Position numbers and translations under genes: made by a program. A model generated the notes under the pieces. The model ran no database searches. It saw only the letters and a program-made list of their open reading frames with translations, and was not told where the DNA came from. DNA of 64,000 nucleotides from an uncultured Chloroflexia bacterium (GTDB taxonomy: Bacteria > Chloroflexota > Anaerolineae > Anaerolineales > UBA4823). Location of the stretch: contig CAWHJB010000011.1 of NCBI GenBank assembly GCA_963829555.1, forward strand, positions 68,857-132,856, read 5' to 3'. This document shows, in pieces, positions 5,259 through 54,330 of this stretch; position 1 is the first letter of the stretch; each line of letters opens with the position of its first letter.

Positions 5259-5296
5259 TACCCGGTAAACTGGGTTTGAGTTGAAAAAAGTTAGGC

Positions 5297-5346
5297 CAAA
5301 ATAAGGCGTCAGCCTGGGCATTTGCCCAGGCTGACGCCTTATTTTG
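5297..5346. repeat. palindromic element, family A copy 1
   Basis: CAAAATAAGGCGTCAGCCTGGGCA-T-TGCCCAGGCTGACGCCTTATTTTG. It lies between convergent genes. Confidence 0.95.
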
Positions 5347-5374
5347 ACAGAACATCTAATTTCATGAGAAGGGG

Positions 5375-6538: not shown

Positions 6539-6615
6539 GCTTTCCTCTCACTTGCCTCGCAAAATAATATTCGATCGACTGGTGATTCTTCAGAATTGGT
6601 CTCTGTGGTAGGGTA

Positions 6616-6668
6616 CCAGATTTGGGGGCGTGAGCGTGCTGATGCACGCTCGCGCCCCCAAATCTTGG
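6616..6668. repeat. palindromic element, family B copy 1 (core)
   Basis: CCAGATTTGGGGGCGTGAGCGTGC-TGAT-GCACGCTCGCGCCCCCAAATCTTGG. It sits between the kinase stop and the response-regulator start. Confidence 0.95.
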
Positions 6669-6718
6669 GTAGCGCCACAGGAATTCTCAAAGTCACTCAG
6701 GATTTCCCAGGGATCCGA

Positions 6719-10199: not shown

Positions 10200-10265
10200 C
10201 ATTAATATTTCGGGGGGGCTTTAGGAGATCCTGCAGCCGAGGCTATATGTGGGGGTAATTTTCTG

Positions 10266-10292
10266 CACTACTCCAGAGATTCCGGAAGACCC
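10266..10292. repeat. dispersed ~30-nt unit
   Basis: CACTACTCCAGAGATTCCGGAAGACCC. Compare copy 28409-28439. Confidence 0.7.
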
Positions 10293-10492: not shown

Positions 10493-10543
10493 GGGTCTCT
10501 GGGAAACTCTGCAGGAGAGTCCCCCCAGGAATTGCCAAAGAAC
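10493..10543. repeat. dispersed ~55-nt unit, copy 1
   Basis: GGGTCTCTGGGAAACTCTGCAGGAGAGTCCCCCCAGGAATTGCCAAAGAAC. Confidence 0.85.
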
Positions 10544-10632
10544 TATTCAATCTGTCAATCGGATTCGATCCGATACATATGCTTCATGACTAAATGGTTC
10601 TTTCGCTAAATACCTTTAGGAAAAAGAGCAAA

Positions 10633-12367: not shown

Positions 12368-12403
12368 CGATATTCTGCTTCCCTTCGGGATGAGTCATAT
12401 CTT

Positions 12404-12433
12404 GGGTACCATCCCAGGCATTCCCAATGATCC
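12404..12433. repeat. dispersed unit (second half of the 55-nt unit)
   Basis: GGGTACCATCCCAGGCATTCCCAATGATCC. Compare CACCATCCCAGGAATTCTCAAAGAACC at 52738-52764. Confidence 0.7.
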
Positions 12434-17224: not shown

Positions 17225-19212
17225 ATGTCTGATTCCGTCTATTTACACGACATTCCACTCGCTCAGGCGAAAGATCGCCTGGATAACGCCCTGCGTGCGG
17301 CAGGGCTGATGGGAATTCTGGGTGCGGAGCTGATCCCGCTCTCTGAATTGGCTATTGGACGCGTCCTGTCGGAACCGGTATGGGCAAAAATATCGTCGCC
17401 CCATTATCACGCTTCGGCGATGGACGGTTTTGCCGTGCGAGCGGAAGACACTGAAGAGGCGCTGCAGACCAATCCCGTCATGCTGGTTTGCGGACCGGTG
17501 GAAACGCAGCCGCAAGCCGCATACCTGGATACAGGCGACCCGCTGCCGGCCTGGGCGAATGCGGTTATCCCGATCGAGAATGTTGAGCCGCTGGTAGCGG
17601 GTGAGCCGGCGCCAAAAGCCCGCCAGCCGGAACTTATCCGGATCAGGGCTGCAGTCCCCCCTGGAGTCACGTCCGGCCGATGGGCGAAGACATGGTCGCA
17701 ACCCAGCTGGTGCTCCCATCTGGGCATAGCTTGCGACCGGTGGATTTAGGCGCGATTGCCGGTTGTGGGCATACTTCGATTAAAGTTGCCCGTAAACCAC
17801 GGGTGGCCGTCTTGCCGACTGGCAGTGAGTTGGTTCCGGTAGGTGTGGATGTAAAGCCGGGCGATATTATCGAATACAACTCCCTGGTGCTGGCAGCCCA
17901 GATCGTTGAATGGGGTGGGGAGGCTGAACGTTACCCGATTACGGTGGATGATTTCGACTTGATTCGGGATCGGGTTGCCGATGCCGCCCGCGGACATGAT
18001 TTGATCTTACTCAATGCCGGGTCGTCGGCCGGATCTGAGGATTTCTCCGCCGGCGTGGTGCAATCCCTGGGGCAATTGCTGGTGCATGGCGTCGCGGTTC
18101 GCCCGGGACACCCGGTCATTTTGGGGGTCATCAGCCCCCCGGACCAGCCTGATAAAAAAGTGCCCATCATCGGTGTTCCAGGTTATCCGGTATCGGCTGC
18201 CCTGACGGGCGAAATTTTTGTGGCGCCGTTGATTGCCCGCTGGCTTGGCCGTCCTGCCCGCCAACCGCAAGAGGTCACGGCCACGCTGACCCGAAAAATC
18301 ACTTCGCCGGCAGGCGATGAAGATTACCTGCGGGTGGCGGTCGGGCGGGTGGGCGAGAAGCTCCTGGCTGCGCCGCTGGCGCGCGGATCGGGGGTGATCA
18401 CCTCGCTCGTGCGCGCCGATGGCATTGCCGTCCTGCCGAGCGGCACGCAAGGTTTGCCAGCCGGCGCTCAGATCAACGTGCAGTTATACCGGCCCCTGGC
18501 CGATCTGGAAAAAACTATTTTTGCGATCGGTTCCCACGACATCACTTTAGATGTTATCGCCCAGTACCTGGCCGAAAAGAACCGACGCCTGGCCTCAGCC
18601 AACGCCGGCAGCCTGGGAGGCCTGATTGCCTTACGGCGGGGTGAAGCCCACCTGGCTGGTTCTCACTTATTAGATCCTGAGACCGGCGAATATAATCTTT
18701 CGTATATCCGCCAGTATTTGCCGAATGTTCCGGTGCGGGTGGTCAAGCTGGTCGATCGCCAGCAGGGTCTGATCGTTCGCAAAGGCAATCCCGATCAGAT
18801 CCTCTCGTTGCAGGATCTGGCCCGACCGGGAATTTCCTACGTGAACCGCCAGCGTGGCGCGGGCACCAGGGTGCTGCTCGATTACCACCTCGCAAGATTG
18901 TCGATTAAGCCGGAAAACGTCCTGGGCTACAATCAAGAGGAATACACTCATCTGGCGGTTGCGGCCGCGATCGCTTCGGGCCGGGCAAATTGTGGGCTGG
19001 GGATTGCTGCAGCCGCTCAGGCGCTGGATTTGGATTTTGTGCCCTTATACCAGGAACGTTATGACCTGGTGATCCCTTTAGCCTATTGTGATAGCGCGCT
19101 GCTGGCGCCGCTGTTCGATTTGCTGGCCGACCCGGCTTTTCAACAAGCGGTTGCCGCCATGCCGGGCTATGGCGTCTCCGGTATGGGTACGGTCATTGCC
19201 GAGATAAGCTGA
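17225..19212 (+). pseudogene. MoeA fused to a C-terminal periplasmic-binding-protein-like domain, frame interrupted in a C6 run
   Basis: ORFs 17174..17749 and 17680..19212 are the two halves of one MoeA (HYHASAMDGFAV ... MGEDMVATQLVL ... LPTGSELV ... LNAGSSAGSEDF ... VPGYPVSA), followed by a ~240-aa PBP-like domain. The frames switch at the CCCCCC run at 17656-17661. Confidence 0.85.
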
Positions 19213-19484
19213 CCACATTATCTCTTGCTTGTTACAGTCCTGGGAATTCTGCTGGAAGGTTCTTTGGGAAACTTTGTGGGATCCGTCACAGTAATTCACA
19301 ATGGGCGTGCCGGAATGCGTTGGATTTGGGGCAATTGGTGTTATGATTAAGCCTGCCAGAATTGGCATACTGGAAACATTGTTAAGCCAGTATCATATAC
19401 TGTCAAACCCAAATTTGTGATCGCGAATAGCTTCAACCTGGGCAAGAATCCATTTTTGGGTTAACCGCAAAATGGAGGTAAATT

Positions 19485-19949
19485 ATGCCGATTTCCGCTG
19501 GGGTTACAGCCCCTGATTTTACCCTGCAAGATGAAACCGGGACTGAGCGAACCCTGTCCGATTATCGCGGCGCTCCGGTTGTTCTGTACTTTTATCCAAA
19601 GGATGATACCCCTGGATGCACGACCGAAGCCTGCAACTTCAGGGATGATTACAGCGCTTATGAGCAAGCCGGGGTCCGGATATTAGGCGTCAGCCCGGAT
19701 TCGCCCAAGTCCCATGCCAAGTTTAAAGCGAAATACGATCTGCCGTTCACGCTCCTGGCAGATGATGGGCACGAGGTTTGCAATGCCTACGGTGTCTGGG
19801 GCGTGAAAAAACGCTATGGCCGTGAGTATGAGGGCGTTTACCGCACCACTTTTCTGATTGATAAGGGTGGTCAAATCGCTAAAGTTTTTGAAAATGTCAA
19901 ACCAGCGGCCCACAGCGCCGAAATCCTGGAGGCCTTGCAGGCGGTTTGA
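19485..19949 (+). CDS. bcp: thioredoxin-dependent peroxiredoxin Bcp
   Basis: 154 aa with YFYPKDDTPGCTTEACNFRD (peroxidatic Cys in the PxxxTxxC context). Confidence 0.93.
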   Translation: MPISAGVTAPDFTLQDETGTERTLSDYRGAPVVLYFYPKDDTPGCTTEACNFRDDYSAYEQAGVRILGVSPDSPKSHAKFKAKYDLPFTLLADDGHEVCNAYGVWGVKKRYGREYEGVYRTTFLIDKGGQIAKVFENVKPAAHSAEILEALQAV

Positions 19950-20005
19950 TCAAGAAAGACCCGGACGTGTTCAGCGTCTTGGGGACACGGTATCCGAAGA
20001 ATGCT

Positions 20006-20052
20006 AAAAAAGTGCCGGCGTGGGTAGTGAATATCCACGCCGGCACTTTTTT
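20006..20052. terminator. bidirectional intrinsic terminator-like hairpin downstream of bcp
   Basis: AAAAAAGTGCCGGCGTGG-(11 nt)-CCACGCCGGCACTTTTTT. A 13-bp GC-rich stem flanked by an A-run and a T-run. Confidence 0.8.
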
Positions 20053-20105
20053 CGTGCGTTTATCGCTGGTCAATGAGCAGTTTGAAAATTGGATACAATT
20101 GGGCT

Positions 20106-20168
20106 CTTTGGTATTTTCTGTGGTGGTACCCCAAATCTGGAATAAATCACAGAATTCCCAATGAGCGC
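20106..20168. repeat. family-B flanks without the GC-rich core (core-less site)
   Basis: CTTTGGTATTTTCTGTGGTGGTAC-CCCAAATCTGG-AATAA-ATCACAGAATTCCCAATGAGCGC. The left and right flanks match those of family B copies 3 and 4, but only 11 nt of the core are present. Confidence 0.7.
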
Positions 20169-20344
20169 TACATTTGAGGGCTACTGAACCGGTCGGGGTA
20201 TAATACCAAAAGTCACAAATGGGCTGCCCAAGGACGCTTCAATTGTGCTGATAACAGCTTGCGACTTGGGACTCTATTATCTCTGTTCAGACAGAGTTGC
20301 TTGCCGGTCCTTCTTAGTTTGACCCTTAAGGCTACGGAGAAGAA

Positions 20345-20803
20345 ATGCACAAATATTTTCCACTTCTGTTTGCTTTACTATTGATCAGCAGTGCAGGGCT
20401 TGCGAGCTGCGCTGGAAGCGATGTGGATGCTATCGAATCTGGCAGCGTGAATAGCCCCACAGCAGTTCAGGCCACGCCGCCAGCCGAGTATGCCAGCCAG
20501 ACGAACCCATTTGGCGGCCAGGCTGCCGCCGCTGAAGATGGGAAAGCTATATACAAGGCGAATTGCGCTGCTTGCCATGGAGAATCGGCCCAGGGTGATG
20601 GCCCCGCGGCCATCTCGCTGGACCCAAAGCCTCAGGATCTGGCCAATACTGTGGCCAATCTGTCGGATGGATATCTGTTTTGGCGGATTTCAGAGGGTGG
20701 GGCAATGGCGCCTTTCCATTCCACCATGCCGGCCTGGAAGACCATCCTGACTCCAGATCAAATCTGGCAGGTCATTACCTATTTGCACACGTTAAGCGGA
20801 TAA
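20345..20803 (+). CDS. c-type cytochrome, lipoprotein-anchored
   Basis: Signal peptide with lipobox (GLASC). One CAACHG haem-binding motif and a distal Met region (HSTMPAW). Confidence 0.88.
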   Translation: MHKYFPLLFALLLISSAGLASCAGSDVDAIESGSVNSPTAVQATPPAEYASQTNPFGGQAAAAEDGKAIYKANCAACHGESAQGDGPAAISLDPKPQDLANTVANLSDGYLFWRISEGGAMAPFHSTMPAWKTILTPDQIWQVITYLHTLSG

Positions 20804-20880
20804 CCGAAATCTGCGGTCCTTTCCCAGGAATTCCTAAAGCTATCCACTGTCAGGAGTTATGGGTATTTCTGAAGTGGTAT

Positions 20881-20934
20881 CCCAGATCTAAGGGTGTGAG
20901 CGTGCATCCGCACGCTCACACCCTCAAATTTGGG
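20881..20934. repeat. palindromic element, family B copy 2 (core)
   Basis: CCCAGATCTAAGGGTGTGAGCGTGC-ATCC-GCACGCTCACACCCTCAAATTTGGG. Confidence 0.95.
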
Positions 20935-20962
20935 ACTCTCCCACAGAGTTTCCTAGGGAGCC
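20932..20962. repeat. dispersed ~30-nt unit abutting family B copy 2
   Basis: GGGACTCTCCCACAGAGTTTCCTAGGGAGCC. Confidence 0.8.
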
Positions 20963-21009
20963 CCACAGCCCCATTTTGAGTAGGTAACGTTTTCGGGTAA
21001 AATAGGCCT

Positions 21010-22878
21010 GTGAAGATCAAAAATGTATTCAAGCCATTCAAAGAAAATCCCGGCCATCTCAGATGGCTGGCTCTGGCGGTATTCATTGTTGTACTGTCCT
21101 TCGTTTGGACGAGTTTGCCTTACCTTTTTGGCGAATTCGTCGATCACCGGGTTTTGGGGATCTGGCTGTCGGTTATTTTGGCTGCCCTGGCCGCATTCCT
21201 GACAGACTTGTTCATACGGATGCGGTTGGAGCGAACACGATTGTTGGGGGAAGCCAACCAGGCCCAAAAGCTGGCTGAAGATACCAGCCTGCGCCTGGCA
21301 ACTGTTTTCCAGTTGAGCAAGAAATTTGTGGAAGCGGATGATGAGGATCAGATCATCACCCAGCTGCTCAAGATCAGTATCGATCTGGTTGGCGCCCGGG
21401 GGGCCTCGTTTGTCCCGATCGACGAGCGCGGCCAACCCTTTGCTGCCGTAAGCCAGGGCGAGTTGCCGTTTCCGGCCCTGGATGCCTGGGTGGAATACCT
21501 GGCATCTCCAACCATCCGCCAGCGGTGCACCACCTGTGAGCACCATGGCAGATTAATGACGGTTTGTCCGCTGCTCAAAGGCCCGTATGCCGATGTAATC
21601 GGTCTGTATTGCCTGCCTCTGAAACTTGGGGACCGGGAAATGGGGGTCCTGAATCTGTACATGCCCGATTCGGATGGTTTCGAGGCCGGAGTCCAGGATT
21701 TTTTGCTGGCCATGTTGGATGAAACCGCCCTGGCTTTGGAGAGCGTCCGGCTGAGGCAGCGTGAATTGGCGGCGCTGCGCCAAATGCAATCCGTCCGGCG
21801 TAAGACCGACCTGACCGGGATGCTCACCAGCCTGCTGGTCGATGTACAAAGCAATCTGGAGTCGGATTTCGCCCGCCTGGAATTGAGCGATGCCCATCCG
21901 GATCAATCCACGCTGGTGGTTGGTAATCTCCCGCAGCAGGTCACACCTTTCCTGGACGGGATCGCCCAGGGGGTGCGCGCGACCGGTGAGCCGGTGTTAT
22001 TAGGGGATGTTGCCGGTGATCCAGCTTCAAGCCCGGCCGTGCGGTCTCTGCTGGCAGTGCCACTCATCTCCTCGAAAAATGAGACCTTCGGCGTGCTGCT
22101 GGTTGGCAACCGGCGATCCCAGAGCTTCCAATCCCGGCAGCTCACGCTTTTACAAACCGTATGTGACCAGGCTGCCATGATTATCGAGAACGCCAGCCTG
22201 TTGGCCGAACTCGAATACAAAACCATGATCCAGGAACGCACCCGCCTGGCGCGTGAGATCCACGATGGCCTGGCGCAGACACTCGGCTTTCTTAAATTAC
22301 AGACTTCCCAGATGGGCAACTATCTCAACCGGGGCGAAACGGAACGTTTGCGCCAGGCGCTGCAGATCTGTTATTCAACTCTGAGTGATGCTTACCAGGA
22401 TGCCCGATTGGCGATCGATGGTTTGCGGATTAACTCATCGGAACAAGGTCTGCGTGGCTGGTTGGAACAGACGGTGGTTGAGTTCCAGGAACTTACCGAG
22501 ACGAAAGTCCTGCTGGAAGAAGTCGATATCCATATCGAACTACCGCCGGAAATTCACGCTCAACTGATCCGGATCGTTCAAGAAGCCCTGAACAATGTCC
22601 GAAAACATGCCCAGGCCAGCCGCGTTCTGGTCAGCTTCAAACAGGTTAATGAAGATCTTTGGTTGGAAATTAAGGACGATGGTGTGGGGTTTTCGCCCCT
22701 GGATGTACCCGAACTTTCTCGATATGGGCTGCGCGGCATGCGCGAACGGGCTGAACTCATGGGCGCTGACTTTCAAGTGATCAGCCGTCCGGATGATGGG
22801 ACCTCTGTGCGGGTCCGGCTGCCGTTGATTGCGATAAATCGCTATTCTGGCTTTGGCCAGGAAGAGGTGAATGGATGA
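21010..22878 (+). CDS. GAF-domain sensor histidine kinase (HisKA_3/NarL-type)
   Basis: GTG start. Two TM helices, GAF-like regions, the HisKA_3 box LAREIHDGLAQTL, and HATPase (NNVRKHA...DDGVGF...GLRGMRER). Confidence 0.9.
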   Translation: MKIKNVFKPFKENPGHLRWLALAVFIVVLSFVWTSLPYLFGEFVDHRVLGIWLSVILAALAAFLTDLFIRMRLERTRLLGEANQAQKLAEDTSLRLATVFQLSKKFVEADDEDQIITQLLKISIDLVGARGASFVPIDERGQPFAAVSQGELPFPALDAWVEYLASPTIRQRCTTCEHHGRLMTVCPLLKGPYADVIGLYCLPLKLGDREMGVLNLYMPDSDGFEAGVQDFLLAMLDETALALESVRLRQRELAALRQMQSVRRKTDLTGMLTSLLVDVQSNLESDFARLELSDAHPDQSTLVVGNLPQQVTPFLDGIAQGVRATGEPVLLGDVAGDPASSPAVRSLLAVPLISSKNETFGVLLVGNRRSQSFQSRQLTLLQTVCDQAAMIIENASLLAELEYKTMIQERTRLAREIHDGLAQTLGFLKLQTSQMGNYLNRGETERLRQALQICYSTLSDAYQDARLAIDGLRINSSEQGLRGWLEQTVVEFQELTETKVLLEEVDIHIELPPEIHAQLIRIVQEALNNVRKHAQASRVLVSFKQVNEDLWLEIKDDGVGFSPLDVPELSRYGLRGMRERAELMGADFQVISRPDDGTSVRVRLPLIAINRYSGFGQEEVNG

Positions 22879-23531
22879 GTAGATTGCGCCTGGTTGTAGT
22901 GGATGATCATTCTTTATTCCGGGCAGGTTTAATTAATTTGCTGGAAGAGATGCAGGATTTTGTGGTTGTGGGGGAGGCAGGTGAAGGCGCCGAAGCCCTG
23001 GAAATCATCCTCGAAAAACAACCCGACGTGGTGCTGCTGGATGTGAATATGCCCGGGGTGGGGGGCGTAGAAACGGTGACTGCGTTACGCAAAAATCCTG
23101 CTACCCGATCGATCCATATCCTGATGTTGACGATCTCTAAAAGTGAGCAGGACCTGTTTGGCGCGATCGATGCCGGCGCTGATGGCTATTTGCTGAAAAA
23201 TGCTGAGCCCACGGAACTGCGTAAAGCGATCCATCAGGTTCACCAGGGAAACGCTGTGCTGGCGCCTCAGGTGACCCGCCAGGTGCTTCAGGCGGTGAAT
23301 ACCGGACCGGACAGGCGCCTGGATTACGGATTGAGCGATCGCGAAATGGACGTTTTAGAGACCCTGGCGCATGGTATGACCACGACTCAGATCGCCGACG
23401 AACTGGTCATTTCAGAAAATACCGTCAAGACGCACGTGCGCCATATCCTGGAAAAATTGCAGGCTTCCAATCGGGCCGAGGCCGTCAGTAAGGCCATCCA
23501 AATGGGCCTGATTGGCAAAAAAAATGGGTGA
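22875..23531 (+). CDS. LuxR/NarL-family response regulator
   Basis: ATGA overlap with the kinase gene. REC domain (VVVDDH...LLDVNMPG) plus a C-terminal LuxR HTH (REMDVLETLAHGMTTTQIADELVISENTVKTHV). Confidence 0.93.
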   Translation: MSRLRLVVVDDHSLFRAGLINLLEEMQDFVVVGEAGEGAEALEIILEKQPDVVLLDVNMPGVGGVETVTALRKNPATRSIHILMLTISKSEQDLFGAIDAGADGYLLKNAEPTELRKAIHQVHQGNAVLAPQVTRQVLQAVNTGPDRRLDYGLSDREMDVLETLAHGMTTTQIADELVISENTVKTHVRHILEKLQASNRAEAVSKAIQMGLIGKKNG

Positions 23532-23539
23532 TGCGGCAG

Positions 23540-24304
23540 TCAGGTCCCGATCACCATACCCCCATCTACCCGTAATGTAATCCCGTGAATAAATGAAGCT
23601 TCGTCCGACGCCAGGAACAGGTACGCGCTGGCGATTTCGTGCGGTTGACCGAGACGGGCTAACGGCGTGCGGGCCAACATGCCGTCCAAAATTTTCTTTG
23701 GCATTGAATGGACCAATTCCGTGGCCGTGAAACCGGGGGCAACGGCATTGACGCGAATATTGTAACGGCCCAGCTCACGCGCCCATACGCGGGTCATCCC
23801 GATGATGCCGGCTTTGCTGGCGGCATAATTGGTCTGGCCGAAATTGCCGTCCAGCCCGATGATCGAACTGGCATTCAGGATTACACCGCTCCGCTGCCGG
23901 ATCATGATTGGAGCGACTGCCTGGGTCACATTGAAGGTCCCTTTGAGGTTGACGGAGATGACCATGTCAAAGTCCATTTCGGACATTTGCCTGACCAGCT
24001 CGCCGTTCTGCATTTTGACCAGGGTATCATCCCGGATGATGCCGGCATTGTTCACCACGATATCGATGCGATCAAAACGAGCGATCACTTCGTCGATCAT
24101 CACCTGGACAGCCTGACGGTCGGCGATGTTGACTGGGAAAAACACCGCCGGAGGGCCGAGTGCAGCCACGATTTCCGGGCCGGCCTCGTCATTAATGTCC
24201 GCAACGATAACGATTGCGCCCTCCTGGGCAAATCTTTCAGCAGTCGCTTTGCCGATACCTGCGGCGCCTCCAGTGATGATAGCTACCCGGTCTTTCAATC
24301 GCAT
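23540..24304 (-). CDS. short-chain dehydrogenase/reductase (3-oxoacyl-ACP reductase-like)
   Basis: Motifs TGGAAGIGKA, NNAG and Y-AASK. 254 aa. Confidence 0.88.
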   Translation of the reverse strand: MRLKDRVAIITGGAAGIGKATAERFAQEGAIVIVADINDEAGPEIVAALGPPAVFFPVNIADRQAVQVMIDEVIARFDRIDIVVNNAGIIRDDTLVKMQNGELVRQMSEMDFDMVISVNLKGTFNVTQAVAPIMIRQRSGVILNASSIIGLDGNFGQTNYAASKAGIIGMTRVWARELGRYNIRVNAVAPGFTATELVHSMPKKILDGMLARTPLARLGQPHEIASAYLFLASDEASFIHGITLRVDGGMVIGT

Positions 24305-24369
24305 TGCCTACCTCGCAATCTCTCCTGTCATCAGGATTGGGAAAGGATCCTTCAATGCCTGAGAACCGG

Positions 24370-24423
24370 GGGCGAAATAGGTGTGCGTGGGGGTGTACAC
24401 CCCCACGCACACCTATTTCGCCC
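24370..24423. repeat. palindromic element, family D copy 1
   Basis: GGGCGAAATAGGTGTGCGTGGGGG-TGTACA-CCCCCACGCACACCTATTTCGCCC. Confidence 0.95.
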
Positions 24424-24524
24424 ATCTCCCGTAATCATGCCTGAGTAGATCCGCTAAATTTAGTATAAACCATATTCCTGGAGGGCGCGGGATGAACTTT
24501 TGCCGCAACTCACCACGGGTTATG

Positions 24525-24576
24525 GCAAAATCAGGGGGCAGCGTGGGCATTTGCCCACGCTGCCCCCTGATTTTGC
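24525..24576. repeat. palindromic element, family A variant (copy 5)
   Basis: GCAAAATCAGGGGGCAGCGTGGGCA-T-TGCCCACGCTGCCCCCTGATTTTGC. It shares the GCGTGGGCA/TGCCCACGC core and the AAAAT/ATTTT ends with family A. Confidence 0.9.
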
Positions 24577-24609
24577 TAGATCCTCCCGAACCAATGAGCT
24601 GTACCTGAA

Positions 24610-26868
24610 TTATGGTTGGGATGGGCGCAGCACAGGCTGTGGGCGTTCACGCACATCCTCGATATCGGGCAGCGGCATCGGCTTGTATTCCGCCCCGGTG
24701 CCCAGGCTCCCGTACGGGATCATATAAATCCTGGTCACGCTGTCCGCGCCCAGGCGTAGATCTTGAAAAGCTACAACCAGGAAATTACCATCCGGGCTCC
24801 AGGATGCATCCCGATAGCAGCAAACATTATCCACTGGATTCGCGGCTTTTTGGACTTTATGCAGGTCGGTATTATAGATGTAAAGATCGCCAAACCCATC
24901 GTTCCGGATGTTATTGTTCAGAGTGAACAGGAAACTTCCATCCCATCCAAAATTCTGCAGATTGGGGGATTTCTCGTAACCCGACATCTCAAACCGTGGT
25001 GGTGGGAAATTGTCCAGGATCTTTGGGCTGGCAGAGCAGGCGCTCACGTCGAGCAGTTGGATGATATCCGCCCGGATCCCATCTTTGACGCCCATCACCA
25101 TCGCTGCCAGCGTCTGTCCATCTGTCGACCAGCGCGCCAATTTGACCGCATTCCTGCCATACGGAGCGTAATCTTGGCAGGCCGCCATGGCGATCAAATT
25201 ATTGCGGTTGGAGACCTGATTGAGCGCCGCAAGATCGTAGGGCACGATATAAAGCTGATTGTCCAGGCTGATGGCCACCTGGCTCATATCCGGGGAAATG
25301 GAAAAGCCGGTCAGGTAATCCACGAAGTTGAAACAGCTGATGTTGTCCACCCGCCCCGTTGTCATTTCTACAGATTGAATGCACTTGCCCGTAATATAGG
25401 TCAAGGCCTGTCCATCCGGTGTCCAGCTCAAATCGGTTTTGACAGTTCCGTCTGTTGTCAATTGTTGCAGGTCAGTGCCATCCAGGTTGGCGATCCACAG
25501 GTTGCGTCCGGCCAGGTAGGCGATTTTATCCGATCCGCCCAGTACCGGCGCTTGAGGCGCTTCGGTTGGCGTGATGGTTGGGCTGGGAGCGGGTGTGTCG
25601 GTTGGGCTGGATGTTTCTGACGGCGCGGGCGCTTGGGTCGCGACAACCACGATGGTTTCGGTTGGCGCAGGGGGCGGGAGGGTCGGGGAAGGGGGCGGCT
25701 GCGTGGGCGCCGGGGTAGGGCTGGCTGTGGGCTGGGCCAACATGGCCAAAGGGCCATTGCCCTGAACGCCCATCGCTCCCAGAATTCCAACGACCACAAC
25801 GCCGATGCACAGCAGCGCCACGACCGGTATGGCTGTGGCCAGCCAGCGCGAGCGTTTCGGTTGTGCCGGCAAAGGGGCTGGCCCGGCTGGAATATCCGGG
25901 CGGGCGGCTACCACGGTTGCGGCAGGCTGGTCCGGATCGAGAACGGGCCGGCCGGCAATCCGGGTCGCACCGGCAACGATGGTCGCATCGGCACCGATGG
26001 TTGCATCGGCACCGATGGTTGCATCCATGGCTGATTGTGGAAGAGGCGTTTCGCCTCGCAAACTTTTTTCGAGGGCCTCGGCAAAATCAGCCGCAGTCTG
26101 GAAACGGTCGTCCGGATTCTTGGCCATAGCCCTGGAAATAACGGCCTGGACTGCTTCAGGCAGATCTGCTTTGCTTTGACGAATATCGGGAACCGGCTCA
26201 AGCAGATGCATCATCATGAGCTTGGTGGGCGTATCGCTGTGATACGGCGCTTGCCCGGTCAACATCTGGAATGTCAGCACGCCGAAAGCATACAGATCGC
26301 TTCGGCCATCTACCGCCCGGTCTCCCTGAACCTGTTCGGGGCTCATATAGGCCGGCGTGCCAACAATATTACTGCCGGTCAGGGTAGCCGAACCCTCCTG
26401 AGCCAACCGGGCGATCCCAAAATCAGACAGGAAGGCGTTGTCATATTGATCGAACAGGATATTGCCCGGTTTCAGGTCGCGGTGAACGATGCCGCGCGCA
26501 TGAGCGGCGTCCAGGGCTGGTGCTAACCGGGTTATGATCCGGGCAGTTTCATCCGGCGGGATCGCGCCTTGCTTGATCCGGTCCGCCAGCGAGCCACCGG
26601 ACATATATCGCATGACAATGTACGGCTGTTGGTTGTGTTCGCCAAAATCATAGACCGGAACGATCGCGGGATGTTCCAGCAGGGCGATCATTTTAGCTTC
26701 ACGCTGAAAACGAGTTCGAAATTCCGGGTCGTGAAGAAAGGCTTGTGGTAAAACTTTGATGGCAACGTTGCGCTCGAAACTGGGGTCGTAAGCATTGTAA
26801 ACAGTCGCCATGCCCCCGCGTCCAAGTTCTGCTTTGATTTCGTAGCGGCCAATGGTTTCAGCGATCAT
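24610..26868 (-). CDS. Ser/Thr protein kinase with TM helix, Pro/Thr-rich linker and C-terminal beta-propeller-like domain
   Basis: Hanks kinase motifs (GRGGMATVY, VAIK, HRDLKPGNIL, DFG, TPAYMSPE). An internal ATIGAD tandem repeat, a TM segment, a PT-rich linker, then a ~330-aa repeat-like domain (TolB/PD40-like; weak call). Confidence 0.9.
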   Translation of the reverse strand: MIAETIGRYEIKAELGRGGMATVYNAYDPSFERNVAIKVLPQAFLHDPEFRTRFQREAKMIALLEHPAIVPVYDFGEHNQQPYIVMRYMSGGSLADRIKQGAIPPDETARIITRLAPALDAAHARGIVHRDLKPGNILFDQYDNAFLSDFGIARLAQEGSATLTGSNIVGTPAYMSPEQVQGDRAVDGRSDLYAFGVLTFQMLTGQAPYHSDTPTKLMMMHLLEPVPDIRQSKADLPEAVQAVISRAMAKNPDDRFQTAADFAEALEKSLRGETPLPQSAMDATIGADATIGADATIVAGATRIAGRPVLDPDQPAATVVAARPDIPAGPAPLPAQPKRSRWLATAIPVVALLCIGVVVVGILGAMGVQGNGPLAMLAQPTASPTPAPTQPPPSPTLPPPAPTETIVVVATQAPAPSETSSPTDTPAPSPTITPTEAPQAPVLGGSDKIAYLAGRNLWIANLDGTDLQQLTTDGTVKTDLSWTPDGQALTYITGKCIQSVEMTTGRVDNISCFNFVDYLTGFSISPDMSQVAISLDNQLYIVPYDLAALNQVSNRNNLIAMAACQDYAPYGRNAVKLARWSTDGQTLAAMVMGVKDGIRADIIQLLDVSACSASPKILDNFPPPRFEMSGYEKSPNLQNFGWDGSFLFTLNNNIRNDGFGDLYIYNTDLHKVQKAANPVDNVCCYRDASWSPDGNFLVVAFQDLRLGADSVTRIYMIPYGSLGTGAEYKPMPLPDIEDVRERPQPVLRPSQP
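25969..26027. repeat. 18-nt tandem repeat inside the Ser/Thr kinase gene
   Basis: CATCGGCACCGATGGTTG occurs twice exactly, plus a diverged copy. It encodes (ATIGAD)n. Confidence 0.85.
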
Positions 26869-27103
26869 AGTATTTTATCCATGGAGACAACAAGGCTGGT
26901 TAAGTACGGAGGCACAGAGAAGCCGCTCAAACCCAACATCAAGGCACTTCCAAGTTAAGGCCGGGGGATCAGCTTACAGCTCCTTTCCGGCAGGCCCCAA
27001 TGAAATTATAATTCGGAGGCATCTTGAGATACATAAAAGTTGTGTGAAATGCATTCGTTTGAAGGGTAATGGGCCCTTGCAAATTTATCAGAATCCAATT
27101 TCA

Positions 27104-27158
27104 GGGTCTCTGGGTAACTCCATGGGAGAATTCCATCTCAGGAATTCCCAAAGGATCC
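27104..27158. repeat. dispersed ~55-nt unit, copy 2
   Basis: GGGTCTCTGGGTAACTCCATGGGAGAATTCCATCTCAGGAATTCCCAAAGGATCC. Confidence 0.85.
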
Positions 27159-27184
27159 AATTTTAAGCTGGGGAAAGAGTTGAA

Positions 27185-27802
27185 ATGAAGCATAAACTAT
27201 TCATCGATAGCAATAAAGGCTTTACACCGATATTTTTTCTGATTCTTATGGCGGTTTTCAATCAGTGGCAAAATCCAACCGCTTTTATCTATCTGGCGCT
27301 GCATGGTTCCTACGGCATTCTGTGGGTCGTTAAAAGCAAGATTTTCCCGGATAGAAGCTGGGAAAAACCGGTGAGCTGGTCGTATGGGCTGCTAAGCTGG
27401 TTCAGTTTATGCCTTTACTGGGTTGCCGGATGGATCATCTTCAGCCGCTCTGTCCAGGCCCCGGCCTGGTGGTTGGGATTGTGTGTAACCAGCTATATTT
27501 TTGGTGTATTTTTTCAGTTCACGGCTGACATGCAAAAATATGTAAGTCTGCAGCTTCGTCCGGGGCACCTGATCACAGACGGCTTGTTCGGCCGGATCCG
27601 CAATATCAATTATTTCGGTGAATTCCTGATCTATGCCGGGTTTGGTCTGCTGGCTATGCATTGGCTGCCGATCGCCATTTTGCTTTTATGGGTGGCTGTG
27701 GTCTGGTTGCCGAATATGATCCGAAAGGACCGTTCTTTGGCGCGCTATCCCGACTTCGATGCCTACCGGCAGCGGACCAGCCTGTTTCTCCCATTCTTAT
27801 AG
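27185..27802 (+). CDS. DUF1295 / isoprenylcysteine carboxyl methyltransferase-like membrane protein
   Basis: Polytopic protein of 205 aa with the C-terminal motif RNINYFGEFLIYAGFGL. Confidence 0.65.
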   Translation: MKHKLFIDSNKGFTPIFFLILMAVFNQWQNPTAFIYLALHGSYGILWVVKSKIFPDRSWEKPVSWSYGLLSWFSLCLYWVAGWIIFSRSVQAPAWWLGLCVTSYIFGVFFQFTADMQKYVSLQLRPGHLITDGLFGRIRNINYFGEFLIYAGFGLLAMHWLPIAILLLWVAVVWLPNMIRKDRSLARYPDFDAYRQRTSLFLPFL

Positions 27803-28357
27803 GCAGGACAGCCTTAGGACTTCATCCACGGTGCCTGACCACAGAGTGCCTCACTAATCAGAGTTACAGTTCCTTAGGATTTCCTCCACAGCGCCGCAGC
27901 GCCCTTCTTTCTCAATGAAACTGTTTTTGCGAGGAGGGCGTTCTTTGCCCAAGCCGGCACTTCACGGCCAAGCAATCTATCTTATTATTGCGATAGGATC
28001 GGTTATGAAGATTGCTTGCCAAAGAGAACACGGCATGCCCAAGTTCGGCTCCTAAGGAACTGTCATTACCATTTCGAGGCACCCTGAGTGGAAGCTGAAG
28101 GAGCGTTCTTTGCTCTGGAGGCTGTAATCGCAGAGCGGTTTCTAATTCAAACCTGGTCATCCTTCGATTACGTTCGGTGAGCAAAAAACGCTCACCTCTC
28201 TCCACTCAGGATGCCTGCTTTCTGGCACTGTCAGGTTCCTTTCTGATTGAAATGTGCGCCAGCATTGTGGAGTTACTCGCAAAGACATTACCAACAAGAA
28301 CAGTTTCCAAAGATCTTGTTGGCGAAGGGGGTCTTTGGGGAATTCCTGTGGTGCTAC

Positions 28358-28411
28358 CCCAGATTTGGGGGTGTGAGCGTGCATCCGCACGCTCACACCC
28401 CCAAATCTGGG
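28358..28411. repeat. palindromic element, family B copy 3 (core)
   Basis: CCCAGATTTGGGGGTGTGAGCGTGC-ATCC-GCACGCTCACACCCCCAAATCTGGG. Confidence 0.95.
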
Positions 28412-28439
28412 ACCCTCCCACAGAGATTCCGGAAGAGCC
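28409..28439. repeat. dispersed ~30-nt unit abutting family B copy 3
   Basis: GGGACCCTCCCACAGAGATTCCGGAAGAGCC. Confidence 0.8.
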
Positions 28440-28496
28440 GGCGAAGGCCGGTCCGTTTTCCGATTGTTGCCTTTAATTTCTAAAAAACGGTTGAAG

Positions 28497-28540
28497 AATA
28501 AAAAACGGCGGGTACTGCTGTTACTCAGCACCCACCGTTT
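28497..28540 (-). terminator. intrinsic terminator downstream of upp
   Basis: The minus strand reads ACGGUGGGUGCUG-(8 nt)-CAGUACCCGCCGU followed by UUUUUU, 22 nt after the upp stop. Confidence 0.8.
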
Positions 28541-28561
28541 GAAAACGAGGTGAAAGCGTCT

Positions 28562-29188
28562 TTATCCGGTGCCAAACTGGCGATCCCCGGCATCCCCTAG
28601 CCCGGGTAAGATGTAGCCGTGTTCGTTTAGCCGTTCGTCGATGGCTGCCAGGTAAATCGGGACCTCGGGATGATGCAACTGCATCAATCGAATACCTTCC
28701 GGCGCGCCGATGATGCCGACAAACTTGATTTTCTTCACGCCCCAGCGTTTGAGCACATCCACGGTAGCAACCGCAGAGCCACCGGTTGCCAGCATGGGAT
28801 CCAGAATCAGGCAGACCGAGACGGTCGGTTCAACCGGCAGCTTGTTGTAATATTCGACCGGTTTGAGCGTGCGCTCATCCCGGTAAAGCCCAATATGCCA
28901 TACTTCTGCACTGGGCATTAACCCCCAGACCCCTTCAACCATCCCCAGGCCGGCCCTCAAGATTGGCACCAAACCAATTTTTTCTTCCAACTCAAACCCG
29001 TTGGTAACTGCCAGCGGCGTCTGCACGCTCCGGGTTTTAATAGCCAGATCATCCGTCGCTTCGTATGCCAGTAATGCGCTGATCTCCCGGATAAGCTCCC
29101 GAAATTTCTTCGGGTTCGTGCGCGTATCTCGCAGGCGGCTTAATTTGTGCTTGACAAGGGGGTGGCTGGATGCAAAAACATTGGACAT
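28562..29188 (-). CDS. upp: uracil phosphoribosyltransferase
   Basis: From ORF 28562..29221, with the start at ATG 29186-29188 ([21 protein letters not shown]). PRPP loop: [13 protein letters not shown]. Confidence 0.95.
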
Positions 29189-29298
29189 AGCTGTGCTCCT
29201 CCTGGTGGCCGGTTCTTTCAAAGCGAAGCTTATGAGCAGCGAGATACTGCCCTGCAGTGTTTCCTAAAACGCACTTTCAATGGCTCCTTGGCAAATCC

Positions 29299-29330
29299 GG
29301 GGACTCTCCCACAGCGTTTTCCAAAGACCC
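29299..29330. repeat. dispersed ~30-nt unit (CCCACAGAGTTTCC type)
   Basis: GGGGACTCTCCCACAGCGTTTTCCAAAGACCC. This is the reverse-complement orientation of the first half of the 55-nt unit. Confidence 0.8.
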
Positions 29331-29373
29331 GTCCTTTCAATTATAGCTGCAAATCCGAGTTATAATCAGGCTT

Positions 29374-30399
29374 ATGAGTGAAATGCCTGATCGGATTGTC
29401 AATCCAAATTCGCAAACTGAAGACCGTCTCGACCAGACTATCCGTCCTAAAATGATGGTAGATCTGATTGGCCAGGATCGGGTCAAAGAGAATTTAAAGA
29501 TCCTGATTGAAGCAGCCCGCCAGCGCCAGGAACCCCTGGATCACGTTCTTTTCTACGGGCCACCCGGCCTGGGAAAGACCACCCTGGCGCACATCCTGGC
29601 GAATGAGATGAACGTCAACATCAAAATAACCGCCGGTCCGGCGATCGAGCGGCCCGGCGACCTGGCTGCCATCTTAACCAATCTGCGCGCCGGGGACATC
29701 CTGTTCATCGATGAAGTCCATCGATTGGGACGTTCGATCGAAGAAGTTCTCTACCCGGCTATGGAGGATTTTGCCCTCGATATTGTGATTGGTAAAGGCC
29801 CCTCAGCCCGTTCGATTCGTTTAAAACTGCCGCGTTTCACCGTGATCGGCGCCACAACCCGATTGGCGCTGGTCACAGCGCCTTTGAGAGCCCGCTTTGG
29901 AGCGGTCTATCGCTTAAATTTCTATGAATTGCCCGCCATGGAAGCCATCGTCAAACGTGCCGCGGGTGTTTTGGGGGTGGAAACCGAGACTGAAGGCGTC
30001 GGTGAAATTGCCCGGCGAGGCCGTGGAACGCCACGCGTGGCGTTGCGCTTACTGCGCAGGGTGCGCGACTACGCGGAAGTGCGTGGAGAAGGCGTGATCT
30101 CACAACAGGCAGCCAAAGAGGCGTTGGATCTGCTTGAGGTTGATGCGCTGGGATTGGATGATATCGATCGCCGTGTCCTCCAGACTGTCATTGAAAAGTA
30201 TAATGGCGGCCCCGTTGGCCTTAGCACGATTGGCGCTTCGATCAGCGAGGAACCGGATACGATCATGGATGTTGTCGAACCCTATCTGCTCCAATTGGGT
30301 TTTCTCGAACGCACGCCCCAGGGCCGGGTTGCTACCCGGCGGGCCTATGACCACCTCAAGCTGCCCTATCGCGAAGATGGCCAAAAGCGATTGTTTTAA
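29374..30399 (+). CDS. ruvB: Holliday junction branch migration helicase RuvB
   Basis: Motifs: [19 protein letters not shown] and the sensor region [16 protein letters not shown]. 341 aa. Confidence 0.97.
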
Positions 30400-30823: not shown

Positions 30824-31846
30824 ATGAAAACTGACGATTTCAATTACGACCTGCCTCCGGAACATATTGCTCAGACCCCGGCTACCCCGCGTGACGCTTC
30901 TCGTTTGCTGGTGTTGAACCGCCAGACGGGTATGGTTCAGCACAGCATATTCCATCAATTGCCCGAATTTTTACAGCCGGGTGATTTGCTGGTTTTGAAT
31001 GAAACCCGGGTCATCCCCGCCCGCATTTTTGCTCGTAAAGTTCCAACCGGTGGGCGAGTGGAAATATTACTGCTCCACCAGGAAAATGAACGAACCTGGG
31101 AATGCCTGGTCGGCGGGAAAGGCCTTTCCGCAGGCAGGCAGCTCCAACTGGAGGACGGACCGGCTGCCCAAATTCTCGAGGTGCTGGATGGACCGCGCCG
31201 CCTGGTTCGGTTCGAACAAGCCCTGGATACTTATCTGGCCGGTTCCGGGCAGATGCCGCTTCCGCCGTATATCCATACGCCGCTGGCAGACCCGGAACGA
31301 TACCAGACGGTTTATGCCCGCCAACCCGGTTCAGCGGCTGCTCCGACCGCCGGGCTGCACTTCACACCTGGCCTTCTGGAGCATCTGCGTGAAATCGGGA
31401 TCGGTCTGACGACGGTTACCCTGCATGTCGGCCTCGATACTTTTGCTCCCGTGACCGAAGAATCCCCAGAAGAGCACAAAATCCACACAGAATGGTGCCA
31501 GCTTTCATCCCAAGCCGCCGAACTTATCAACCGTACCCACCAGCAAGGCGGGCGTATCATCGCAGTTGGCACGACCAGCGTGCGCACACTGGAGACTGCC
31601 GCCCAAAGGGCCCTTCCGGGGGAACTGGTCAAACCCTTCAGTGGTTCAACCGACTTATTCATCCTACCCGGCTATCAATTTAAAGCTATTGATGCTATGA
31701 TCACCAATTTCCATTTGCCCCGTTCGACCCTGATCATGCTGGTGAGCGCGTTTGCAGGTCGCGAAAAAATTCTCGACACCTACCAACTGGCAGTTCAGGC
31801 GGGCTATCGTTTTTACTCTTTTGGCGATGCCATGCTGATTCTATAA
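30824..31846 (+). CDS. queA: S-adenosylmethionine:tRNA ribosyltransferase-isomerase
   Basis: From ORF 30743..31846. Start moved to ATG 30824 (MKTDDFNYDLPPEHIAQ), because the upstream part of the ORF is only the family-D palindrome. Motifs: GSAAAPTAGLHFT and AVGTTSVRTLE. Confidence 0.95.
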   Translation: MKTDDFNYDLPPEHIAQTPATPRDASRLLVLNRQTGMVQHSIFHQLPEFLQPGDLLVLNETRVIPARIFARKVPTGGRVEILLLHQENERTWECLVGGKGLSAGRQLQLEDGPAAQILEVLDGPRRLVRFEQALDTYLAGSGQMPLPPYIHTPLADPERYQTVYARQPGSAAAPTAGLHFTPGLLEHLREIGIGLTTVTLHVGLDTFAPVTEESPEEHKIHTEWCQLSSQAAELINRTHQQGGRIIAVGTTSVRTLETAAQRALPGELVKPFSGSTDLFILPGYQFKAIDAMITNFHLPRSTLIMLVSAFAGREKILDTYQLAVQAGYRFYSFGDAMLIL

Positions 31847-31964
31847 GAATCCCCAGTCATGTCTTGCTCGCGATTTATATCTGAGCGATTTCGGCACGAT
31901 ATTTCAGAGTACTGTATATTTCGTTCTACAAATTCATCAACACCCTACTGATATGCAATGATAA

Positions 31965-32018
31965 GGAAAAATTAGGCGTCAGCCTGGGCATTCGCCCACG
32001 CTGACGCCTAATTTTTCC
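31965..32018. repeat. palindromic element, family A copy 2
   Basis: GGAAAAATTAGGCGTCAGCCTGGGCATTCGCCCACGCTGACGCCTAATTTTTCC. One arm position is unpaired (CCTGGG vs CCCACG). Confidence 0.95.
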
Positions 32019-32087
32019 AGAATTCCCGCATATTTCATGCTATGCTGATCCTGTAAGGGCGCACGAAAATGCTGTAGAAAATTATTT

Positions 32088-33645: not shown

Positions 33646-33675
33646 CGCTACCGATCATTGAGAATTTCTATGATA

Positions 33676-33704
33676 GGGTACTCCTCAGAGTTTCCCAAAG
33701 ACTT
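33676..33704. repeat. dispersed ~30-nt unit
   Basis: GGGTACTCCTCAGAGTTTCCCAAAGACTT. Confidence 0.75.
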
Positions 33705-33759
33705 GACTATACGGGTGTTATCCTTGAAGTGGTACCATGGTTTGGTCACAAACTGGTGC

Positions 33760-36347: not shown

Positions 36348-36447
36348 ATCGATTTTCGGCTTATTCGAATTTAGCAGCTACCCGGCCCTTTTAGGTTTAG
36401 ATCTTTCACATGAGGTCGGGTAGTTACCATTTTATAGGAGTAAATCT

Positions 36448-43322: not shown

Positions 43323-43418
43323 TATATCCTGGGCCCCGGATGATTTGATTATTCCAAAGTGACCTGATTATAATCTATCATCGTATCTACTTCGACAATA
43401 TCACATTAAAAAAAGATA

Positions 43419-43473
43419 CCCAAATTTTGATGTGTGTGGCGGGAGTTGCCCGCCACACACATCAAAATTTGGG
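43419..43473. repeat. palindromic element, family C copy 1
   Basis: CCCAAATTTTGATGTGTGTGGCGGG-AGTTG-CCCGCCACACACATCAAAATTTGGG. Confidence 0.95.
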
Positions 43474-44181: not shown

Positions 44182-44248
44182 GGGACCATTCCACGGAGTT
44201 TCCAAAGACTCTTTCCTGATTCTCTGGGAAATTCTGTGGGAGGGTACC
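44182..44248. repeat. inverted pair of ~30-nt units directly upstream of the sigma-54 promoter candidate at 44166-44181
   Basis: GGGACCATTCCACGGAGTTTCCAAAGACTC ... TCTCTGGGAAATTCTGTGGGAGGGTACC. Confidence 0.75.
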
Positions 44249-44402
44249 ACCACAGAAATACCGATAGATTCCCTTTCCTGAACGGCTGCATGAACGGTTA
44301 AGAGATTATAATGAGCCTGGTCAAAATTTGGATAAATTCCTCAAATCGGGAACTATCCATCATGATACCAGACAGGTTATCAATCTTATTTCGGAGAACA
44401 AC

Positions 44403-47591: not shown

Positions 47592-47681
47592 CGACAAGCC
47601 CTCATCGAAGAAAGATTTTTCGCCCAAGGTTCGTACATAGGCTTGAGTAGTGTGAAAATGTCATATTAATATACAGGATAC

Positions 47682-47735
47682 CCAAATTTTGATGTGTGTG
47701 GCGGCCGCCCGCCCGCCACACACATCAAAATTTGG
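47682..47735. repeat. palindromic element, family C copy 2
   Basis: CCAAATTTTGATGTGTGTGGCGG-CCGCCCGC-CCGCCACACACATCAAAATTTGG. The left flank CAGGATAC is shared with copy 3. Confidence 0.95.
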
Positions 47736-50050: not shown

Positions 50051-50113
50051 GGGCCTGATTTTAACATAATCAGGTACGCAATATGAGCGACGTTCCCATA
50101 AAATAGACATTAA

Positions 50114-50170
50114 AGACAAAATAAGGCGTCAGCCTGGGCATTGCGCCCAGGCTGACGCCTTATTTTGTCT
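50114..50170. repeat. palindromic element, family A copy 3
   Basis: AGACAAAATAAGGCGTCAGCCTGGGC-ATTGC-GCCCAGGCTGACGCCTTATTTTGTCT. Confidence 0.95.
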
Positions 50171-50209
50171 CATTATCGGTTTATTAAGAACCTATCCGAT
50201 AATTGTTAT

Positions 50210-52709: not shown

Positions 52710-52764
52710 GGGGACTCTGGGAAACTCTGCGGAAGAGCACCATCCCAGGAATTCTCAAAGAACC
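52710..52764. repeat. dispersed ~55-nt unit, copy 3
   Basis: GGGGACTCTGGGAAACTCTGCGGAAGAGCACCATCCCAGGAATTCTCAAAGAACC. Confidence 0.85.
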
Positions 52765-54283: not shown

Positions 54284-54330
54284 TTCATTTTCTGCAACTT
54301 TTGGGTCTTTAGGAAAATCTTTGGAATAGT

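Follow-up and report, generated by a model that had tools for sequence, protein, structure and literature searches.

The window analysed here, a stretch of 64,000 nucleotides from contig CAWHJB010000011.1 (assembly GCA_963829555.1) of an uncultured Chloroflexia bacterium of the order Anaerolineales, contains four copies of a long palindrome (family B), each bracketed by inverted copies of a short unit that also occurs without the palindrome. The question raised by this arrangement is whether the composite is a chance meeting of two repeats, an RNA structure of the host, or a single mobile unit. We conclude that it is very probably a miniature inverted-repeat transposable element (MITE) of ~110 bp that is widespread in the Anaerolineae, with the dispersed 30-nt unit as its terminal inverted repeat (TIR) and the B palindrome as an internal module of one subfamily. 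Selfish DNA that is mobilised in trans and inserts at AT-rich intergenic sites is the best-supported account of the family as a whole.

The palindrome cores lie at positions 6615-6668, 20881-20934, 28358-28411 and 54331-54384 of the window (copies 1, 2, 3 and 4 respectively). A search of the 64-kb window with the core half-arm CCCAGATTTGGGGGTGTGAGCGTGC at up to three mismatches yields eight matches, corresponding to both arms at each of the four sites, with an expectation of 0.00 from shuffled sequences. A preliminary description of the locus assigned a perfect 54-nt core to all four sites; this holds for copies 3 and 4, which are perfect palindromes of 25 + 4 + 25 nt, but not for copy 2, whose arms have three mismatches, nor for copy 1, which has one or two. 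Inverted copies of the unit, ~25-30 nt in length, do flank all four cores as that description had it, and the window holds 11 matches to a degenerate pattern of the unit where 0.01 would be expected. The loops read ATCC in copies 2 and 3, GGAT on the plus strand in copy 4, and TGAT/ATCA in copy 1, and when the copies are oriented by their loops (ATCC/ATCA) the left flank is ...GGAATTCCTGTGGTGSTAC and the right flank ...GACYCTCCCACAGAGWTTCC in every one. The left-right asymmetry of the flanks is coupled to loop orientation in 4 of 4 window copies, and the B element therefore has one polarity and is found on both strands, as had been proposed from the loops of copies 2, 3 and 4.

Copy 3 (28329-28439, plus strand) is 111 bp long and consists of a left TIR, the palindrome with loop ATCC, and a right TIR, with target-site duplications of GGCGAAGG immediately to its left (28321-28328) and right (28440-28447) that are identical at 8 of 8 positions. 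It lies between a DUF1295 gene and upp, downstream of the terminator of upp itself. Copy 4 (54303-54411, minus strand) lies between Usp and EamA genes, and its duplication, GCAACTTT at 54294-54301 and GCACCTTT at 54412-54419, is identical at 7 of 8 positions. Copy 2 (20852-20962, plus strand) is decaying, with a degenerate left end in addition to its arm mismatches and a duplication, CCACTGTC at 20844-20851 and CCACAGCC at 20963-20970, that retains 6 of 8 identities; its neighbours are a cytochrome c gene and a GAF kinase gene. Copy 1 (6587-6697, minus strand, with loop TGAT on the plus strand) is old, with degenerate ends and a duplication that is no longer recognisable, and is situated within the 180-nt spacer between a PAS/HisKA kinase gene and a sigma-54 activator gene. 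All four copies are intergenic. These extents are narrower than those first given, which for copy 2 (20821-20975) had taken in part of a separate solo end remnant at 20806-20839. Between the DUF1295 gene and copy 3 there are also ~500 nt (27803-28328) without counterpart in three syntenic relatives (see below), in which the sole open reading frame (ORF), of 97 aa (27912-28205, minus strand), has no Pfam match.

Copies outside the window were obtained by scanning representative genomes with a loose pattern for the centre of the core, which gave many matches in metagenome-assembled genomes of the Anaerolineales and 'Chloroflexia', though not in the source genome of the window, which the matches did not include. 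Nearly all of these matches carry the same two flanks (e.g. GGTTCTTTGGGAATCCCCGTGGTGAACTCCC | core | GGGGACCTTTCACGGTAAATCCCAATGAGCC). The B elements are 78-90% identical to the loci from other genomes over 72-112 nt, and outside the B elements the sole match of the window to those loci is a segment of 181 nt at 72% identity (31660-31840 against locus L006), which is read as coding similarity. In an alignment of 33 copies, similarity begins and ends abruptly at GGYTCTYTGGG ... CCCARAGARCC, and direct repeats of 8 bp are present at a fixed offset, perfect in 14 of the 33 copies and with one mismatch in nine more. When all 116 end pairs are considered, the 8-bp duplication is perfect in 64 and has one mismatch in a further 23; none of the 116 control comparisons, made with the 8 nt lying next outward, has one mismatch or fewer. 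A+T makes up 72% of the duplicated 8-mers, compared with 46% of the surrounding DNA. The TIR consensus from 212 arms, ~19% of which begin with GGG, is GGCTCTTTGGGAATTGCCGTGGTG; the ends of the family are also designated GGCTCTTTGGGAAT-type ends.

These data bear directly on whether the B palindrome and the 30-nt unit are separate repeats, each abundant independently of the other, that have come together by coincidence. The unit does occur without the palindrome, and a few palindromes elsewhere (in loci L056 and L060) have no recognisable flanks, but more than 25 copies, drawn from many genomes, have the core and both flanks at fixed spacing, the duplications lie outside the flanks, loop and flank orientation go together, and the unit-only forms are the expected products of deletion between ACCC or TCCCA repeats (see below). 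We regard a coincidence as so improbable that it can be set aside; the multiple alignment of further copies that the preliminary description recommended reveals the same flanks and abrupt termini, and the coincidence of two repeats is therefore refuted. The composite nature of the element stands, but the unit is not an abundant repeat in its own right, being the TIR of the same family.

Additional elements with the same ends and other interiors were collected by scanning metagenomes with an end pattern, together with one match in a viral contig. The B type is 106-112 bp in length, and the wider family spans 38-198 nt (106 elements with duplications), falling into length classes of 38-39, ~50-55, ~105-112, ~118-122, 130-154 and 172-198 nt. 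Dozens of members are present in other Anaerolineae and Chloroflexi genomes and metagenomes. Several 'solo ends' from the metagenomes were rejected as false positives within coding sequence, such as the GyrA motif GIAVGMATNIPPHNL, and locus L124, considered as the zinc-finger N-terminus of a transposase, is actually another MITE of ~150 nt. The elements are short and without coding capacity, share TIRs, generate a duplication of fixed length, and occur in many dispersed copies that differ in presence between related genomes (see below), in line with the definition of MITEs used here (PMC3733652), under which such elements measure from tens to a few hundred bp and have TIRs of about 15-30 bp.

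At least 12 members of the family reside in the window: the four B-type copies, about six coreless elements of ~52 nt with both TIRs and no palindrome, one 78-nt member, one with a partial core, and several solo ends. Three of the coreless derivatives with flanking duplications are on the minus strand, at 10493-10544 (~52 nt; duplication ATTCAATT / ATTCAATC), 27104-27157 (~54 nt; CAATTTCA / CAATTTTA) and 52711-52764 (54 nt; a perfect duplication of AATGCTTG), as is a fourth at 44220-44272 (~52 nt) that has TTTCCTGA on either side and a solo right-end remnant just upstream (44182-44212). Two others are on the plus strand, at 19258-19307 (~50 nt; duplication TGCTGGAA / TGCCGGAA) and 33654-33706 (~52 nt and degenerate). 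Several of the coreless pairs have duplications matching at 7 or 8 of 8 positions. The 78-nt member (10215-10292, plus strand; duplication ATTTCGGG / GTTTCGGG) has the same TIRs and a different interior, and a partial-deletion derivative (20102-20166, plus strand) is composed of a left TIR, the B-palindrome remnant CCCCAAATCTGG, and a right TIR. Solo TIR remnants, all on the minus strand, are located at 20806-20839 abutting copy 2 (repeat family D4), at 29300-29330 between upp and ruvB (repeat family D10), at 12403-12430, and at 55430-55458.

The solo and paired occurrences of the unit are deletion derivatives or remnants of the MITE family. We propose that the short relatives (the coreless ~52-nt forms, the 38-39-nt mini-elements and the solo ends) would arise by deletion between short direct repeats, events to which long palindromes are expected to be subject. 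The coreless form is exactly what loss of the palindrome between the flanking ACCC direct repeats would leave, and the 38-39-nt forms are what a deletion would leave if it ran from a TCCCA(G) repeat of the left arm to one at the right terminus.

Three relatives with syntenic loci around ruvB (L086-L088; RuvB 95-96% identical, DNA ~70-82% identical) lack copies 2 and 3 at the corresponding sites. In L086 the DUF1295 and upp genes are only 8 nt apart, and the spacer between the cytochrome c and kinase genes is 77 nt, compared with 206 nt in the window, leaving the site of copy 2 empty. Contig_12767 of the European Nucleotide Archive metagenome assembly ERZ25039549 encodes a sigma-54 activator identical to that of the window and is a strain variant with 97-99.7% identity. 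That contig also encodes FtsZ, and the closest RuvB proteins of named origin, 82-84% identical, come from metagenome-assembled genomes of the Anaerolineales and Chloroflexi; the window is accordingly placed in the Chloroflexota, class Anaerolineae, and a planctomycete origin, considered at first, is rejected. In a near-identical strain, copies 2 and 3 have at most 1 nt changed, copy 3 is identical in strain contig L210, and copy 1 is present in strain contig L085 with 16 differences, inside a locally divergent tract. The tract itself (window 5306-7478, ~2.2 kb) accounts for 45 of the 74 differences between the window and L085 over 16.5 kb, covers the activator gene, copy 1 and the 3' end of the kinase gene, and fits import by recombination.

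The preliminary description viewed the whole element as a long hairpin, and when copy 3 is folded as single-stranded DNA it does pair end to end, with an energy of -46.2 kcal/mol (z = -11.9). The 24-bp core stem is kept in 28 copies, with two-sided compensatory changes in 11 of 27 pairs and hardly any one-sided changes. Folded as RNA, the elements have equal energies on both strands (-74.1 versus -73.8 kcal/mol; 7 versus 9 copies). Given the paired changes and equal strand energies, the palindrome therefore behaves as a symmetric structure at the DNA level, or one under selection on both strands, and not as a one-strand RNA; with no energy asymmetry, there is no sign of strand-specific RNA selection. 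Errors in nanopore consensus sequences were also considered as a general cause of the paired palindrome changes and rejected, copies 2 and 3 being identical or 1 nt apart between assemblies; the family-A palindromes (see below) may have such an origin.

A stable stem kept by compensatory changes, with copy 1 inside a kinase/regulator operon and MITEs known to affect mRNA fate (PMC3733652), might equally bring to mind a regulatory or structural RNA of the host, such as a terminator, attenuator, RNase target or small RNA, conserved for its function and not mobile. We consider this very improbable. The elements are surrounded by 8-bp duplications, stand in both orientations relative to genes, and are missing at orthologous sites in relatives, and the near absence of one-sided changes of the G:U type, like the equal strand energies, points to a palindrome in DNA. 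A terminator scan of 19000-30000 called no B hairpin, and there is no T run after the stem; upp has a terminator hairpin of its own at 28503-28540. Rfam 15 at the gathering score has no match in the whole window, and no tRNA is present in the window either. The view that the elements resemble MITEs and not simple terminators is borne out by the sharp ends, the duplications just outside the flanks, and this absence of a terminator-like T run. Effects of the MITE on neighbouring genes are nonetheless possible, for example in the kinase/regulator operon around copy 1, because MITE hairpins can alter the fate of mRNA (PMC3733652); the suggestion in the preliminary description that copy 1 could attenuate or process this operon's mRNA is speculative.

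Elements moved by a tyrosine transposase would likewise be palindromic, intergenic and highly repeated without a linked transposase. Repetitive extragenic palindromic (REP) sequences and their composites (REPINs), moved by the IS200/IS605-like REP-associated tyrosine transposase (RAYT), or palindrome-associated derivatives of IS200/IS605, could be invoked on these grounds, the more so as an IS605-type TnpB insertion is present at one related locus, L088. This explanation is, however, at least as improbable as a host RNA and perhaps slightly more so. HUH/RAYT transposition makes no target duplication and here there is a fixed one of 8 bp; the 33-copy alignment contains no conserved GTAG or CGTC tag of the kind by which REPs are defined (PMC3733652); long conserved TIRs are typical of DDE elements; and the IS605 element of L088 has unrelated ends. 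That insertion (L088 6100-7900), comprising a degenerate TnpA-like ORF and a 405-aa OrfB_IS605/TnpB, is in the DUF1295-upp spacer and adjoins a hairpin that L087, a relative lacking the insertion, has as well.

For a MITE, the mechanism that we envisage is one in which the two ~24-nt TIRs (GGCTCTTTGGGAATTGCCGTGGTG) would be the sites of binding and cleavage by a DDE transposase supplied in trans. The enzyme would make staggered cuts of 8 bp at AT-rich targets, repair of which would leave the 8-bp duplications, and the 54-nt palindrome together with the TIRs would make the whole element one hairpin-forming palindrome. We infer both the identity and the current activity of this transposase, as well as any effect on neighbouring genes; what the data establish directly is the form of the ends and duplications, how many copies there are and how they are spread over the Anaerolineae, the emptiness of orthologous sites, and the upkeep of the palindrome. 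If the elements are indeed MITEs, an enzyme of the ISL3 family acting in trans is the candidate that we favour, with moderate confidence and from sequence comparison. In the ISL3-family element ISArsp7 the inverted repeats read GGCTCTTCGCGGTTGGTGGTGAAT and the direct repeats are 8 bp long (PMC6305408), both of which were confirmed in the plasmid sequence (L211), and the MITE end consensus agrees with the left inverted repeat of ISArsp7 at 19 of 24 positions, the blocks GGCTCTT and GTGGTGAA being common to both (shuffle p = 0.0015). The likeness to the left inverted repeat of ISPst2 is weaker (p = 0.035). There is also a precedent in Microcystis, in which ISL3 transposases have been held responsible for a MITE whose ends are GGCTCTTCG and whose duplications are 8 nt long (PMC11448079).

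A different DDE family that makes 8-bp duplications and has GG ends, such as IS6, ISKra4 or ISH6, is a tentative alternative, to which we assign an appreciable but distinctly smaller probability. It would be consistent with the absence of an ISL3 transposase or autonomous copy from 1.5 Mb of DNA (see below), with the GGG at the start of ~19% of arms, and with the resemblance of the first six nucleotides, GGYTCT, to IS6-type ends, and ISKra4 was first named in a Chloroflexi genome. Against it, the two-block likeness of GGCTCTT...GTGGTGAA to ISArsp7 is better than that to the repeats of other families described in the same source (PMC6305408), and the Microcystis MITE supplies an ISL3 example with GGCTCTTCG ends and 8-nt duplications (PMC11448079).

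Several points weigh against a MITE driven by an ISL3 transposase. The ISL3 assignment is made because of duplication length and end similarity only, and GG ends together with 8-bp duplications are also seen in IS6, ISKra4 and ISH6. The ~1.5 Mb of Anaerolineae DNA retrieved yielded no autonomous element, in the sense of two ends separated by 600-5000 bp and accompanied by a duplication, tblastn of the same DNA with the ISArsp7 transposase gave no match at E < 2, and none of the scanned genes of the window was recognised as a transposase gene. The central 20 bp of the core do not vary between genomes, but this invariance is in part an artefact forced by the search pattern. At ~70-82% DNA identity, insertion and loss at the syntenic sites cannot be told apart save through the intact duplication of copy 3. 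Finally, there is no difference in presence or absence of any B copy between strains that are 97-99.7% identical, and recent movement or activity is therefore not demonstrated. Other searches in this direction were negative as well: a search for paired ends of an autonomous element with a hidden Markov model of the ends in 89 + 120 loci, and blastn of the mini-element against plasmids. ORFs beside solo ends were examined as transposase candidates and proved to be ordinary genes, e.g. for kinases and ABC ATPases.

A broader reading is that the family is a long-lived, lineage-wide commensal and not the product of a recent burst, kept across the Anaerolineae by a single-copy or domesticated transposase, with a palindrome that is adaptive; the analogy is with REPIN-RAYT systems, but with a DDE enzyme. 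We consider this unlikely. Were it true, the palindrome could fold the DNA back so that the ends of the element meet, where a duplex of 38-110 bp would not be long enough to be bent into a synapse or circle. The stem-preserving compensatory changes and the absence of an autonomous copy from 1.5 Mb fit this reading, as does the better conservation of the elements, which are 78-90% identical across genomes, compared with ~70-82% when housekeeping coding DNA of the window is set against that of its syntenic relatives.

Searches of the literature yielded no account of MITEs in the Anaerolineae or Chloroflexi, and this family seems to be undescribed, though MITEs are an ordinary kind of selfish DNA and no new biological principle is involved. 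Some of its traits are unusual, namely the perfect palindromic interior, the very short derivatives, the high density, and an occurrence throughout the class with no autonomous partner in sight. Most of the short repeats scattered through the window, namely the four B composites and the paired and solo units, are accounted for as members of a single transposon family that have decayed to different degrees, at a density of about one element per 5 kb. Such elements will break short-read assemblies and confuse predictions of repeats and small RNAs, and they mark intergenic insertion hot spots in the Anaerolineae, which are very abundant yet little studied. The sharp ends and 8-bp duplication offer a direct handle for finding the responsible transposase, and the natural series of substrates from 38 to 198 bp could show the minimum substrate length of a DDE transposon.

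The window contains other palindrome families, and three of these (A, C and D) were considered as members of the MITE family and rejected; they are without its ends and are separate elements. Family-A palindromes (5287-5352, 24516-24581, 31957-32022, 50107-50172 and 57188-57253) consist of an A run, a G+C-rich stem and a T run at the 3' ends of genes, with compensatory differences between copies, and look like bidirectional intrinsic terminators forming a sequence family. In the one at 5298-5349, two perfectly compensatory pairs (5306/5337 and 5308/5335) differ from the 99.55% identical L085, which could be real paired evolution, gene conversion of palindromes, or a long-read consensus artefact. 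A segment of ~190 nt with the family-A palindrome at 31957-32022 is present in the window (31847-32037) and absent from the 98-99% identical strain L210 (12445-12465); the direct repeat of 16-19 nt on either side of it, ATGCTGATYCTRTAAG, is a duplicate of the 3' end of the queuosine-synthesis (PF02547) gene upstream, and the segment looks like a site-specific or long-duplication insertion. At two sites, palindromes of the family-C type (GAAATAGGTGTGCGTGGG...CCCACGCACACCTATTTC) that one strain carries are missing from the other or replaced there (L210 16791-16916 versus window 36389-36433, and window 24352-24453 versus L210 4791-4947). Families A and C, variable between near-identical strains, are possibly mobile.

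A second MITE-like family is represented by a 108-nt insertion at ~5105-5212 of L210, absent at window position 24614, with the direct repeat CCTGAATTATG, ends CGAGCATTCAATTTGTGTAGA / TCTACAACATTTGCATGCTC and the palindromic core TGTGGTGTTCGGTTTGGGCG...CGCCCAAACCGAACACCACA; a similar palindrome is at 54238-54285 of the window. The family-D palindromes (CCAAATTTTGAKGTGTGTGGCGG...) at 43381-43443, 47653-47735 and 55543-55623 share a conserved flank of ~30 nt, TGAMAATGTCATMTTAATAWACAGGATACC, which suggests another composite repeat. A D-like palindrome is found inside an 80-nt MITE of the B-element TIR family in locus L169, and at L088 18373-18655 the core of another MITE with these TIRs is a C-like palindrome (GGGGTGTGCGTGGGC...GCCCACGCACACCCC), the element being interrupted by a nested insertion of ~170 nt that carries yet another palindrome.

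Among known systems, the family resembles REP/REPIN-RAYT in consisting of abundant intergenic palindromes that persist throughout a lineage without a nearby transposase gene, but REPs have GTAG/CGTC tags and no target duplication, whereas the elements described here have DDE-type ends and 8-bp duplications. Like Correia/NEMIS of Neisseria, ERIC, RUP and BOX, they are long-hairpin intergenic repeats of the ~100-150-nt class in both orientations that can be co-transcribed with neighbouring genes, but they have no sequence similarity to any of these. Correia elements have 26-bp ends and duplicate TA, and BOX elements are modular, without TIRs or duplications. With a duplication of 8 bp and unrelated ends the family falls outside Correia/NEMIS, and of the likeness to MITEs or to Correia/BOX-type elements originally suggested, the first holds and the second is an analogy only. 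ISArsp7 of the ISL3 family has the inverted repeat GGCTCTTCGCGGTTGGTGGTGAAT, comparable to GGCTCTTTGGGAATTGCCGTGGTG(A/G)A in the MITE, and 8-bp direct repeats, but is 1,451 bp long and encodes a 430-aa transposase, whereas the elements here encode nothing (PMC6305408). The ISL3-derived MITE of Microcystis aeruginosa is similarly short and non-coding, with GGCTCTT ends, 8-nt duplications and presumed mobilisation in trans by ISL3 (PMC11448079). The family in the window differs from it in having no cognate ISL3 element in the ~1.5 Mb searched, in its variant series of 38-198 nt, in its Chloroflexota/Anaerolineae host, in its longer ends of ~24 nt, and in the perfect or near-perfect 54-nt palindrome of its interior.

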